A stretch of 64,000 nt of DNA, taken from assembly GCA_965243395.1 (NCBI GenBank), contig CBDEUS010000002.1, forward strand, positions 978,293 to 1,042,292, in the 5' to 3' direction. The position numbers and the translations under genes are program-made. Under the pieces are notes generated by a model. It saw only the letters and a program-made list of their open reading frames with translations, made no database searches and was not told the DNA's origin. Source of the DNA: Gammaproteobacteria bacterium. Lineage in GTDB: Bacteria > Pseudomonadota > Gammaproteobacteria > UBA4575. Numbering within the stretch: position 1 is the first letter of the stretch; every line of letters starts with the position of its first letter. Below are positions 6,302-9,628 of this stretch, piece by piece.

Positions 6302-7165
6302 TTACTTAAGATGTGTATCTTTAAATATTAAAGTAGTAATTTGTTCAGAAATTAGACCAATTAATATAATTAGCAAAGAAGAAATAAAGAGCAGTGCGCT
6401 CATATTCGTAAAACGGCTAAGTGTAATGAAAGTGTATAAGTAATGTGCGGCACCGGCTAAAAATAAAAAGAAACTAATGGGAAAAAATATTTTTAAAGGA
6501 GAGTAAAGTGTGCCTACTTTGAAAATAATAATTAAAAAACGTAGGCCATCACGGCCTAGTTTTAAATGACTTTTTCCTTTACGTTTGCTGGCAATAATTG
6601 GAATATATTTGATTGAATATCCGGCACGAAAAAATGCCATAGTTATTGTAGTCGGATAAGAAAATCCATTTGGGAGTATATGCAAAAATTCTTTGAACTT
6701 TTCTGCATGTACAGCTCTAAGACCAGAGGTCAAATCATCAACTTTATGTCCGACAATTAAGCTAGCAATTATGTTATATAGTTTATTGCCGATCCAACGC
6801 CTCTTTCCTGCTTGGGAACTGGATGATCGTGCACCAACTGCCATATCTGTACCTTGTTCTATGGCTAGAAGTAATTTTTTAATGTCATCAGGGTTATGTT
6901 GCCCGTCGGCATCCATGTATACAAAGATATCCCCGTGTGCAGTTCGAGCACCGGTTTTAACCGCTGCACCATTACCAATGTTGTACGGGTGAGAGACGAT
7001 TTTTACATTAAATTCATTTGCAAGATTTGCGGTATCATCTGTCGAGCCATCGTCAACTACTATAATTTCAGCTTCGGAATATAATTTATTCAATTTGGGC
7101 AACAGATCGGTCAATCCACTAGCCTCATTTTTAGCAGGAATTATGATGCTAATTGATTTACTCAA
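6302..7165 (-). CDS. GT2 polyprenyl-phosphate sugar synthase (DPM1/GtrB/ArnC-like).
   Basis: 287 aa. It has IIIPAKNEA, the VVDDGSTDDT motif and a DADGQH (DxD) motif, followed by two C-terminal transmembrane helices. That is the GtrB/ArnC architecture. Confidence 0.75.
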   Translation of the reverse strand: MSKSISIIIPAKNEASGLTDLLPKLNKLYSEAEIIVVDDGSTDDTANLANEFNVKIVSHPYNIGNGAAVKTGARTAHGDIFVYMDADGQHNPDDIKKLLLAIEQGTDMAVGARSSSSQAGKRRWIGNKLYNIIASLIVGHKVDDLTSGLRAVHAEKFKEFLHILPNGFSYPTTITMAFFRAGYSIKYIPIIASKRKGKSHLKLGRDGLRFLIIIFKVGTLYSPLKIFFPISFFLFLAGAAHYLYTFITLSRFTNMSALLFISSLLIILIGLISEQITTLIFKDTHLK

Positions 7166-9108
7166 TTTGAAATCTCGCTGGAATATGAATCTTTGTGGGT
7201 GTCTATAAATTCAAATGCTTCTTTAATAGTCTTGCTATATGTGCCATATTTGTCAATCTTTTTTAAGTCTTCAATTAAGCTTAGTGCACTTTGATAGTCA
7301 CCATTGATTAACAAAAGTTTAGATAATTCTATTTTATACGCCATGTTGATCGAGGTTTCTGATACGGCTTCTTTTAGAAGTTTAATTGCTGTATCAATAT
7401 CCCGAACAACTGTACCAAAATAACCTGATAAATTTGCTAGTACTTGGGCTCTGTGTTTTCCTTTTAGACTAGGATTTAATAGCGCAGCATACATAATTTG
7501 TAAATAATCTACACTTGTAATATTACATTTTCCTTTTATTACGTATTCAGTAAGAAATGTTATTGCATTTAGTGGTTCTGGACCAAGTGTGCTCAATTGC
7601 ATTTTCTGCTTAATTTGCTCAATATCTTGATTAGGGATTTGATTTAAGTGTTCACAGGTAAATATCGATCTTGCAAGTAGCGGAGTAATGTTGTTTGGCT
7701 TTGAATCTTCGGCATTTTGGAAGTAACTGATACCTTCTCTATATAATTCATCTTTAATTTCAGTTTCGTTGGTGCGTGCATATATTGATTGATACACGGA
7801 TCCCATAATTAAGTTTGCTCGATAAGAATTAGGGTGTCGTGTCACATCATAGAGTGCGAGTGTATACTCATTTTTCCACTCGGATGAGCGTATGAAGGTA
7901 ACTGTAGAAAGTGCAATGATCCAGAGAAAAAATAACACATAAGCATATTTCAGCTTGTTACCCCTGCTAAAAAATATGTGTAACGCTACAATAGTTGTAA
8001 AAATAATGCCAAATGAAGGTAGATAATTTCTATGCTCGAATCTAAGTTCTAGCGGGAATATGGTTGATTCTAATGAATGTCCAATTAAAAACCATATTAT
8101 GCCAAACCCAATATACGGGTATTTTTTATATGAGAGAATAGAAATGATGATTAAAACTAATAATAAAATTATCGAAAAAAGTGTAGTAGAAGGTTGAAGT
8201 ATAGACTTTGATATTTCGATATTATCTTTGAGTAAACCAAGCTCGAATATATTTGGGGAAATGATTGTTCTTAGATATTCTACAACAACCCTTGTTTCTG
8301 TAAGAAGCCTTTCCCAGAGTGTAAATTCTCGTAAACTGTACTTGAGTATTTTTTCGGGTTGCACGATTAAATTACTCAGCAGTATCAAAGCAGGCGCTGC
8401 TATTACTAAGAAATAAAGTGCATACAATATTCTTCTATCTTTTTTCGAATGACATTCAAATTTATATACAAATATTTCTATACATAGTAAAAATAGCGGG
8501 ATAAGTACACCAATTTCTTTGCTTAGGATAGATAGTATTGCGAGAACTGCTGTAGGAAGAAAGTAATGCCACCTGCATTTTGAGGACAGCATTTTTGTTC
8601 TTACTGCGCAGTAAGCGAGAATTGAAAATATTGAAAACAAGGTCGCTAGACTCGTCATTCTTTGCACTATGTAAAGAACGCTTGTCAACTGGATAGGGTG
8701 AACTAGCCATATAGCTCCAATAGTCAGACTGATAAGATTTACTTTTGTAGTATCAGTTTTATCAAACCAGGTTTGAGTTAATTGTTTTGATAGTAATGTA
8801 ATCCCAATTCCACATAATAGATGAATCAAAAGGTTAGTGATTTTCATTGGCCCAGGATTTAGGCCGGTAAAATATGTATTTAGGGAAAAAGATAGTATTG
8901 AAAGCGGGCGTTTCAAATTGCCTGTGATACCGCTCCAAGTGGCTTCCCATATAGCTGCAAAATGGAGTGAATCTAAGTGTAATCCAATATTATTTACAAT
9001 ATTTGGATAGTCATCGAAATGGAAACTTCCTGGAAGGCCTGGCATATAAATGGCAACAGTGAGGCCGCATGCAAGGAAGATATAAAAACTAATTGTTCGA
9101 TTTGTCAA
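7162..9108 (-). CDS. Polytopic membrane glycosyltransferase, GT-C-like (PMT/TMTC/ArnT-type), with a C-terminal TPR domain. It is a candidate pilin or protein O-glycosyltransferase. A PglL/TfpO-like O-oligosaccharyltransferase is the alternative reading.
   Basis: 648 aa. There are about 11 or more N-terminal transmembrane helices, with an FHFDDYPNIVNN acidic motif in the first predicted periplasmic loop. The C-terminal roughly 250 aa is soluble and TPR-like. The start overlaps the GT2 stop by 4 bp. The gene lies immediately downstream of pilA, after a terminator. Confidence 0.55.
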   Translation of the reverse strand: MTNRTISFYIFLACGLTVAIYMPGLPGSFHFDDYPNIVNNIGLHLDSLHFAAIWEATWSGITGNLKRPLSILSFSLNTYFTGLNPGPMKITNLLIHLLCGIGITLLSKQLTQTWFDKTDTTKVNLISLTIGAIWLVHPIQLTSVLYIVQRMTSLATLFSIFSILAYCAVRTKMLSSKCRWHYFLPTAVLAILSILSKEIGVLIPLFLLCIEIFVYKFECHSKKDRRILYALYFLVIAAPALILLSNLIVQPEKILKYSLREFTLWERLLTETRVVVEYLRTIISPNIFELGLLKDNIEISKSILQPSTTLFSIILLLVLIIISILSYKKYPYIGFGIIWFLIGHSLESTIFPLELRFEHRNYLPSFGIIFTTIVALHIFFSRGNKLKYAYVLFFLWIIALSTVTFIRSSEWKNEYTLALYDVTRHPNSYRANLIMGSVYQSIYARTNETEIKDELYREGISYFQNAEDSKPNNITPLLARSIFTCEHLNQIPNQDIEQIKQKMQLSTLGPEPLNAITFLTEYVIKGKCNITSVDYLQIMYAALLNPSLKGKHRAQVLANLSGYFGTVVRDIDTAIKLLKEAVSETSINMAYKIELSKLLLINGDYQSALSLIEDLKKIDKYGTYSKTIKEAFEFIDTHKDSYSSEISN

Positions 9109-9120
9109 TGTTTTGAGTAA

Positions 9121-9155
9121 AAAAAAACGCCCTGCAAATGCAGAGCGTTTTTAAG
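9121..9155 (-). terminator. Rho-independent-type hairpin downstream of pilA. It may attenuate read-through into the glycosyltransferase genes.
   Basis: On the minus strand the sequence is aaaaacgctctgcatttgcagggcgttttt. It is an imperfect 9-bp stem flanked by A and T runs, 24 nt after the pilA stop. Confidence 0.5.
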
Positions 9156-9178
9156 TATTTTAAATTTAAAAATCTAAA

Positions 9179-9628
9179 TTACTGTCTGCAATCTGCTGGT
9201 AGATACTTGTTAGGAATTGCAGTACCACCTGTTGCAGGACGACAGTCCCAGTCAACATTTGCAGCGTTACCAGTACCTAGTAGCTCTAAAACATTACCTG
9301 CGTTTGCAGTGCCACCAAGATCGGTAATAGAGGCTCTAACTGTCGCAGTTGTTGCAGTAGTTCCTGCTAGAGTTACAGACTGTACATACTTCGAGTTAAT
9401 ATTCGTTTCGAAGCCTGCTTGAACAGCGCTAGCTGGCATTGCATTTTGAGATTGAAAGAACTCAGAAATAGCAACTTTTGCTGGTGAAGTAGCAAGTAAT
9501 GCTTCAGAAACTTTTGAGCGGATTGTGTAGTCCTGATAAGCAGGAATCGCAATCGCTGCAAGAATACCGATAATCGCAACCACGATCATCAATTCAATTA
9601 AGGTAAAACCTTTTTGCATTTTTTTCAT
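9179..9628 (-). CDS. pilA: Type IV major pilin (T4a class, PilA/PilE).
   Basis: [34 protein letters not shown] has a 7-aa leader with Gly at -1, then Phe+1 and Glu+5. The C-terminal disulfide loop is [20 protein letters not shown]. An AGGAGA ribosome-binding site is present. Confidence 0.92.

Follow-up and report, generated by a model that had tools for sequence, protein, structure and literature searches.

The 64,000-nucleotide (nt) stretch of DNA analysed here, hereafter the window, comes from a gammaproteobacterium (assembly GCA_965243395.1, contig CBDEUS010000002.1, positions 978,293 to 1,042,292). It contains a cassette in which pilA, encoding the major type IVa pilin, is followed by a gene for a 648-aa membrane protein with a C-terminal tetratricopeptide repeat (TPR) domain and by a gene for a family 2 glycosyltransferase (GT2). 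Our analysis indicates that this cassette probably specifies pilin O-glycosylation of the type known for TfpW of Pseudomonas aeruginosa, albeit with a different sugar donor. The evidence comprises the predicted GT-C fold and the conserved motifs of the 648-aa protein, the type of the GT2, and a gene order that is maintained across many genera.

Organisation of the cassette

All coordinates are positions within the window, and all genes described lie on its minus strand. The cassette consists of the following features:

9179..9628, minus strand: pilA, type IVa major pilin and proposed acceptor (149-aa precursor, 142-aa mature protein)
9123..9152, minus strand: intrinsic terminator hairpin in the spacer between pilA and the GT-C gene (13-bp stem with 6 GC pairs, T9 tail)
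7162-9108, minus strand: complete open reading frame (ORF) of the TfpW-like 648-aa protein, TTG start at 9108
7873..9108, minus strand: predicted GT-C catalytic membrane domain (residues 1-412, 11 transmembrane (TM) helices)
9010..9015, minus strand: codons of D32-D33, the GT-C 'DD' motif (F-H-F-D-D) in predicted periplasmic loop 1
7165..7872, minus strand: C-terminal TPR domain (residues 413-648), predicted to be periplasmic and proposed to recognise the acceptor
6302..7165, minus strand: GT2, putative polyprenyl-phosphate sugar synthase of 287 aa (DAD at residues 85-87, codons 6905-6913)

The product of pilA matches the Pfam models Pilin (1e-17) and N_methyl (7e-11) and displays the cleavage motif G|FTLIE as well as a C-terminal Cys122-Cys140 pair (mature numbering). 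The pilA stop codon is separated from the TTG start of the GT-C gene by 70 nt, and the T-run of the terminator ends 15 nt before this start, too close for the gene to have a promoter of its own. At its other end, the GT-C gene overlaps with the GT2 gene, the stop codon of the former and the TTG start of the latter being joined as TTGA. An earlier model-generated reading of this DNA (the original prediction) had placed the three genes on one strand and had considered the GT-C and GT2 genes to be translationally coupled, and both proposals agree with the ORFs, the Pfam matches and the stop/start overlap. In contrast, its end of the module at position 6302 has to be given up, because the tight operon runs on into genes for a DUF354 protein and an AsnB-like protein, with spacers of 8 and 1 nt. 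With regard to the start of the GT-C gene, the public gene call P0001 (627 aa, start M22; positions 9046-9108 dropped) cuts off the first TM helix. The TTG at 9108 is the better start because homologues align from residue 2-5 onward.

A terminator behind a pilin gene is a recognised means of setting the levels of accessory genes and a known feature of pilin accessory loci (PMC11841053). Of 66 related loci, 53 have an equivalent hairpin and T-run between pilA and the GT-C gene. Upstream of pilA, the sequence TGGCAC-N5-CTGT (9792-9778, minus strand) is a weak match to a sigma-54 promoter, which is unconvincing when taken alone and fits the adjacent PilR-type activator bearing a GSFTGA motif.

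Fold, topology and conserved residues of the 648-aa protein

In Pfam and NCBIfam, the 648-aa protein yielded only a weak match to TPR_19, a model that is also matched by 43 of 46 diverse family members, and its membrane domain is covered by neither collection. The models PMT, PMT_2, DUF1736 and Wzy_C gave no match in any of 46 relatives even at E <= 1, including the PMT_2 and DUF1736 families to which the original prediction had pointed. Likewise, Wzy_C, Wzy_C_2 and PglL_A matched neither the window protein nor the 46 relatives. A Wzy_C/O-antigen-ligase domain had been named beforehand as the mark of a PglL/TfpO-type enzyme, and this identity was ruled out, since the protein lacks the domain and is predicted to adopt a GT-C fold instead.

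Searching the PDB by sequence with the protein itself returned TPR proteins only, and the family profile matched only TPR proteins as well, over approximately its last 200 positions (consensus TPR proteins, 7e-24). An AF2 model based on an alignment of 46 sequences (mean pLDDT 89.2, pTM 0.88) found its best structural matches among the protein O-mannosyltransferases (PMTs), namely Pmt4 and Pmt2. As judged from this model, the protein is a GT-C enzyme with an acidic motif in the first extracytoplasmic loop, in line with the fold that had been guessed at the outset.

Hydropathy, the AF2 helices and the positive-inside rule together predict a cytoplasmic N-terminus, 11 TM helices and positively charged loops on the cytoplasmic side (SKCR, KKDRR, YKKY, RGNK). 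Loop 1 (residues 25-84, comprising F-H-F-D32-D33) and the TPR domain (411-648) are predicted to face the periplasm. The original prediction had likewise placed an acidic FHFDD motif in the first periplasmic loop and had noted a C-terminal TPR domain. Residues D32, R67, W134, P138, Q149, R150, K197, R267, P285, R360 and Y362 do not vary among 113 homologous copies, tandem paralogs included, and 112 of these copies have D33. Moreover, the motif Y278-X6-P285 in the loop that joins TM7 to TM8 retains its tyrosine in 111 and its proline in all 113 copies. All invariant residues sit in periplasmic loops, a pattern that would be expected of an active transferase facing the periplasm.

This conservation bears on the question whether the protein might be inactive and act as a pilin chaperone or assembly factor, comparable to TfpY or FimB, on a GT-C-like scaffold. 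Several accessory proteins encoded after pilA are known from the literature to be non-enzymatic assembly factors. However, the DD pair and about ten other residues in the periplasmic loops are strictly conserved in the 113 copies, and the gene shows a conserved linkage to a lipid-sugar synthase. Moreover, TfpY-like proteins comprise about 240 aa with three transmembrane helices and have a different fold according to the literature. We therefore consider an inactive scaffold highly improbable.

The GT2

The GT2 matches Glycos_transf_2 (9e-33), contains the motifs VVDDGS and D85-A-D87 and ends with two hydrophobic helices. Its nearest relative in the PDB is the Pyrococcus Dol-P-Man synthase (5mlz, 1.6e-18), followed by ArnC (three structures) and GtrB, all of which attach a sugar to a polyprenyl phosphate. 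Among the NCBIfam models, AglJ scores best (full length, 8.7e-35), and PpgS, the haloarchaeal Dol-P-hexose transferase, ArnC and PgfS follow. These neighbours bear out the DPM1/GtrB/ArnC-type GT2 with a DxD motif and two C-terminal TM helices that had been proposed, and by its sequence the enzyme can be assigned to the polyprenyl-phosphate sugar synthase type (DPM1/GtrB/ArnC/AglJ). All NCBIfam scores are too far below the respective cut-offs to assign the sugar.

Conservation of the arrangement

To place the cassette in context, 80 loci from Gamma- and Betaproteobacteria (individual loci are denoted by L numbers) were compared and their neighbouring genes scored with phmmer. They include loci from Acinetobacter, Undibacterium, Novimethylophilus, Dokdonella, Rhodanobacter, Solimonas, Exilibacterium, Methylococcales, Nitrosomonadales, Acidiferrobacterales and others. 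Cultured carriers among them are Acinetobacter tianfuensis WCHAc060012 (L043) and Novimethylophilus kurashikiensis La2-4 (L020). In 62 of the 71 loci with enough sequence (87%), a pilin gene on the same strand precedes the GT-C gene by at most 600 bp, and in 43 of 65 an orthologous GT2 gene lies at most 1.5 kb downstream of the GT-C gene. When any position within 6 kb is considered, a GT2 gene is present in 59 of the 80 loci. The median spacers amount to 79 bp between pilA and the GT-C gene and to 30 bp between the GT-C and GT2 genes, and the order pilS-pilR-pilA-GT-C recurs in approximately 30 of the 80 loci. The recurrence of the arrangement in most of these independent loci is far beyond chance, and the synteny counts for pilA, the GT2 gene and the terminator strongly support a function tied to the pilin. 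Thus, the order pilA, GT-C, GT2, which the original prediction had taken as a meaningful unit, is maintained in many genera.

In 24 of 79 loci the GT-C gene is present in tandem, 20 loci having two copies and four having three. The tandem copies, found among others in L003, L019, L055, L068, L070, L074 and L077, have diverged. Every tandem paralog retains the invariant core, both DD aspartates are retained except in one paralog (L053), and the number of GT-C copies does not track the number of pilin genes. The median identity is 59% for the GT2 (58 loci), 39% for the GT-C domain and 23% for the TPR domain. A conserved GT2 together with a divergent TPR domain would fit one common donor and a fast-evolving recognition of the acceptor.

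The homologue search with the window protein matched at least 2,500 proteins. With the catalytic domain (residues 1-412) as query, the number of cluster representatives at 50% identity was 25,975 at E <= 1e-3, 13,230 at E <= 1e-10 and 4,806 at E <= 1e-30. By these counts, the GT-C domain defines a very large family outside all Pfam and NCBIfam models. Its members are mostly annotated as 'hypothetical' or 'tetratricopeptide repeat protein' and in a few cases as 'protein O-mannosyl-transferase', and the closest relatives are metagenome-assembled genomes (MAGs) of uncultured Gammaproteobacteria. Four distant relatives of the GT-C domain with 28-30% identity (L082-L085) were found on IMG/VR contigs. 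A phage origin was rejected, as these were the only relatives in 2.9 million viral contigs.

The synteny also has to be set against the possibility that the GT-C/GT2 pair acts on lipopolysaccharide or lipid A, on a periplasmic glycan or on other envelope proteins, with the site next to pilA serving as a hot spot for glycan islands. For the pairs GtrB/GtrC, ArnC/ArnT and CsbB/YfhO, the substrates known from the literature are mostly lipids or polymers, downstream of the locus lies a variable island of sugar genes whose GC content is atypical, and no acceptor motif was identified in the pilins. However, the position of pilA immediately upstream on the same strand is shared by 87% of the testable loci from many families, with a spacer of about 79 bp that offers no room for a promoter. 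Moreover, the TPR domain suggests a protein partner and evolves fast, as do the globular domains of pilins, and TfpW, the sole characterised protein with this architecture and position, modifies pilin. Another acceptor is thus improbable in our view.

Comparison with TfpW

TfpW of P. aeruginosa comprises 646 aa with 11 predicted TM helices (bioRxiv 10.1101/2020.04.19.049825). A DDX motif in its first periplasmic loop is essential, its C-terminus forms a TPR domain on the periplasmic side, and its conservation is confined to the periplasmic loops 1 to 5 (bioRxiv 10.1101/2020.04.19.049825). The tfpW gene is located directly downstream of pilA, is co-transcribed with it and is required for pilin modification, and homologues adjacent to pilA have been noted in Azotobacter, Acinetobacter, Teredinibacter, P. 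indica and Kingella (bioRxiv 10.1101/2020.04.19.049825). The original prediction had regarded the coupling of a pilin gene to a GT-C transferase with a TPR domain as undescribed. This claim cannot be upheld, as TfpW already has these features (bioRxiv 10.1101/2020.04.19.049825).

The window protein resembles TfpW, the D-arabinofuranosyltransferase of the group IV strains Pa5196 and PA7 (P. aeruginosa/P. paraeruginosa), in size (648 versus 646 aa), in its cytoplasmic N-terminus, 11 predicted TM helices and large periplasmic C-terminal TPR domain, and in the DDX motif (here D32-D33-Y) of periplasmic loop 1. In both proteins, conservation centres on the periplasmic loops 1 to 5. Both genes directly follow pilA and share its strand, and both proteins model on GT-C enzymes, the Phyre2 template of TfpW being ArnT.

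The donor pathway sets the two systems apart. TfpW employs polyprenyl-phosphate-linked D-arabinofuranose (D-Araf) generated by a phosphoribosyl pyrophosphate (PRPP) transferase, DprE1 and DprE2, whose genes are located elsewhere or clustered with pilA (in PA7 they are unlinked to pilA). No genes for a PRPP transferase, DprE1 or DprE2 were found beside the window cassette. Instead, the window locus and most of its relatives carry a GtrB/DPM1-type GT2 gene in the operon, and this replacement of the D-Araf genes implies a different sugar. Moreover, no TfpX-like gene follows the window cassette, unlike in the tfpW locus.

Homologues were searched with the window protein, a copy from a 'Pseudomonas sp.' MAG and the Exilibacterium copy as queries, and neither TfpW nor any entry from PA7, A. 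venetianus, T. turnerae, P. indica or Azotobacter was among the best 120 matches listed per search. The accessions of published TfpW homologues were not found in the cluster look-ups. We found no paper describing the GT2-linked donor, the family size, the tandem paralogs or the variable island, and the motif strings were absent in the full-text search. Judged by gene content, what appears to be new with respect to TfpW is the donor pathway, together with the family's size, its tandem paralogs and the variable island that is attached.

Neighbouring genes and the downstream sugar-gene island

The cassette is flanked by the following features:

11299..12957, minus strand: ORF for a pilS-like sensor kinase, context as pilA regulator; homologues are located upstream of pilA-GT-C in many related loci
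9941..11302, minus strand: ORF for a pilR-like sigma-54 enhancer-binding response regulator with the GSFTGA motif, context
5217..6293, minus strand: gene for a DUF354 protein of 358 aa, 8 nt past the GT2 gene (Pfam DUF354, 2.8e-16)
3365..5215, minus strand: gene for an AsnB-like glutamine amidotransferase of 616 aa, 1 nt past the DUF354 gene
2086..3168, minus strand: GT4 (GT-B) glycosyltransferase gene in a low-GC segment, after a gap of 196 bp (Glycos_transf_1, 9e-37)
749-1747, minus strand: pseB-like 4,6-dehydratase gene (Polysacc_synt_2, 1.3e-97)
1-746, minus strand: start of a pseC-like DegT aminotransferase gene, cut by the window edge (translation MSFIPYGRQSISDDDI...)

The DUF354 gene is probably part of the same operon as the GT2 gene, and it recurs beside the GT2 gene in L001, L063 and L064, which are among the closest relatives. 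No solved relative of DUF354 was found by sequence, and the literature search returned only unrelated DUF numbers. The AsnB-like protein matches Asn_synthase (1.7e-64) and GATase_7 (1e-44), and with 404.8 bits it exceeds the cut-off of TIGR01536. It is a probable sugar-modifying amidotransferase, and its gene recurs in L004, L040 and L064. Over the GT4 gene (window 1500-3500) the GC content drops to 0.27-0.30 compared to about 0.38 in the flanks, which points to part of a glycan island that was exchanged horizontally. The pseB-like and pseC-like genes continue the sugar cluster on the same strand. As judged from these two genes, a pseudaminic-acid-type sugar pathway may adjoin the pilin locus, which does not imply that it serves the pilin glycan.

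Across the related loci, the survey of the two genes following the GT2 gene covered 70 ORFs from 36 loci and revealed 25 GT4 enzymes, 10 methyltransferases, 6 epimerases or dehydratases and 3 Wzx-like proteins; GtrA was not among them. A small protein with about four TM helices was not found anywhere in the window. In loci without an adjacent GT2 gene (L030, L034, L041, L046, L047, L062 and L072) other genes follow directly after the GT-C gene, encoding a Wzx-like flippase, a DegT aminotransferase, a phosphoenolpyruvate mutase together with a cytidylyltransferase (phosphonate pathway), an ABC transporter or methyltransferases. This gene content hints at other donor chemistries in these loci. 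Since the downstream genes vary from locus to locus, the cassette heads a variable sugar-gene island. It is conceivable, and probable though speculative, that the products of the DUF354, AsnB-like and GT4 genes modify or extend the glycan.

These neighbours lend themselves to a second mechanism. An AglJ-like GT2 could start a glycan on undecaprenyl monophosphate, which the GT4 enzyme, perhaps together with the DUF354 protein, would extend and in which the AsnB-like protein would amidate a uronic acid, before the whole glycan is flipped and transferred en bloc to the pilin by the GT-C protein. The logic of this model follows the Haloferax pathway of AglJ/AglG/AglI/AglE and AglB rather than that of PMT or ArnT. 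AglJ is the best full-length NCBIfam match of the GT2, GT4 enzymes account for 25 of the 70 ORFs among the two genes after the GT2 gene, the DUF354 and AsnB-like genes are packed against the GT2 gene in the window, and in some loci the GT-C gene is followed by one for a Wzx-like flippase. However, the NCBIfam matches remain below the cut-offs, as stated above, and the structural matches to Pmt4 and Pmt2 as well as the architecture of 11 TM helices plus TPR domain fit monosaccharide transferases (PMT, TMTC) and TfpW. Moreover, the neighbouring GT4 enzyme could belong to an adjacent unrelated polysaccharide island, with which its low GC content and the 196-bp gap are consistent, and the GT-C genes found in tandem in 24 of 79 loci are more in keeping with additions made step by step in the periplasm. 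En bloc transfer would thus explain the tightly linked genes, yet it is less well supported than the transfer of a monosaccharide, and we regard it as unlikely.

Relation to other glycosylation systems

In the three-component systems GtrA/GtrB/GtrC, ArnC/ArnEF/ArnT and CsbB/GtcA/YfhO, a cytoplasmic GT2 makes an undecaprenyl-phosphate-monosaccharide that a GT-C enzyme uses outside, as proposed here, and the window GT2 is closest to enzymes of these systems. They modify O-antigen, lipid A or teichoic acids and not protein, however, and their GT-C partners lack a TPR domain, unlike the window protein. In addition, they usually comprise a gene for a small flippase, whereas none was seen by the window cassette. 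The actinobacterial Ppm1/Pmt, fungal PMT1-4 and metazoan TMTC1-4 systems likewise combine a polyprenyl-phosphate-sugar synthase with a GT-C protein O-glycosyltransferase. The TMTCs in particular share with the window protein 11 TM helices, C-terminal TPRs and a catalytic acidic pair in loop 1. The window family differs from PMT and TMTC proteins by the lack of any Pfam PMT, PMT_2 or DUF1736 match and of MIR domains, and its proposed acceptor is the single dedicated product of a neighbouring gene rather than a broad secretory set.

Like the window protein, TfpO/PilO, PglL and TfpM are polytopic proteins of the inner membrane whose genes often directly follow that of the pilin, and they glycosylate pilin on the periplasmic side, as is proposed here. 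They belong to the Wzy_C/O-antigen-ligase family and use oligosaccharides linked to undecaprenyl pyrophosphate, whereas the window protein has no Wzy_C domain. A further system is indicated by PgfS, which is among the NCBIfam matches of the window GT2. In the Pgf system of Streptococcus mutans, the GtrB-like PgfS, the polytopic PgfM1 and PgfM2, and PgfE O-glycosylate surface adhesins. It differs in its Gram-positive host, in its sortase-anchored adhesin acceptors and in the lack of both a TPR domain and a linkage to pilin. The cyanobacterial pilin glycosyltransferase Ogt was considered as a relative and rejected, as it is an unrelated GT41 enzyme.

Proposed mechanism

In the TfpW-type pathway that we favour, pilA would be transcribed from its own promoter, presumably in dependence on PilS/PilR. 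The strong terminator would halt most transcripts past pilA, and read-through would carry the downstream genes, thereby holding the enzymes to a small and constant share of the amount of pilin. The GT2 would load one sugar from a nucleotide sugar onto undecaprenyl phosphate at the cytoplasmic face of the inner membrane, and a putative flippase would transfer the lipid-linked sugar to the periplasm. There, the 648-aa GT-C enzyme would use it as donor, with an active centre formed by D32-D33 and conserved residues in loops 2 to 5, and would glycosylate Ser/Thr residues of the membrane-anchored pilin before its assembly, while the periplasmic TPR domain would bind the globular domain of the pilin. 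By analogy with TfpO and TfpW, the glycan would probably shield the pilus from pilus-specific phages and aid the stability of the pilin. The path from a polyprenyl-phosphate sugar via a GT-C enzyme to a periplasmic acceptor was already part of the original prediction, and it is supported by the lack of Wzy_C, the type of the GT2 and the conserved gene order.

Several observations weigh against this pathway. A conserved Ser/Thr acceptor patch was not found in 64 neighbouring pilins, in which the richest 10-residue windows vary in position, and the TTATTAT stretch of the window pilin, previously put forward as an acceptor feature, is not conserved among them. No GtrA-like or other flippase gene was found near the window cassette, and the 70 neighbour ORFs of related loci contained no GtrA. 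Likewise, one third of the related loci lack an adjacent GT2 gene and the donor chemistry is not uniform, and the GT4, DUF354 and AsnB-like genes close to the GT2 gene are unexplained by a simple monosaccharide model. Furthermore, the likeness to TfpW (GenBank AAM52060.1) is one of architecture and not of alignment, and the TfpW motif YX6PFX7P of periplasmic loop 4 is matched here only as YX6P, with no F at position 286 and no P eight residues on. Finally, the case is built from genes, models and synteny, for the window as well as for all GT2-linked members.

Beyond the single cassette, the data permit a wider proposal, which we put forward tentatively and hold to be somewhat short of probable. 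The order of pilA, terminator, one to three tandem GT-C/TPR genes and GT2 gene might be the principal means, hitherto unrecognised, by which environmental Gamma- and Betaproteobacteria glycosylate pilin, and the arabinosylating TfpW would be only an atypical offshoot. One conserved undecaprenyl-phosphate sugar, made by the highly conserved GT2, would then be used by rapidly diverging GT-C enzymes on co-evolving pilins, tandem paralogs would extend the glycan stepwise in the periplasm, and the variable island would diversify an anti-phage coat.

Significance

Type IV pili are major phage receptors, adhesins and organelles of DNA uptake. Pilin glycosylation by TfpO and TfpW guards against pilus-specific phages, and in P. 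aeruginosa it alters phage susceptibility as well as pilus assembly. No concept is overturned by the cassette described here, because the type of mechanism is already known from TfpW. TfpW, so far known from one clade and with one unusual sugar, may stand for a very large family (about 4,800 clusters at E <= 1e-30) whose genes lie adjacent to pilA in nearly all of the 80 loci and are linked to a gene for a conserved lipid-sugar synthase in most of them. The analysis predicts pilin glycosylation in many cultured bacteria, among them Acinetobacter johnsonii, A. towneri and A. indicus as well as Novimethylophilus, Dokdonella, Rhodanobacter and Undibacterium, and a compact protein O-glycosylation system of two or three genes could serve glycoengineering.

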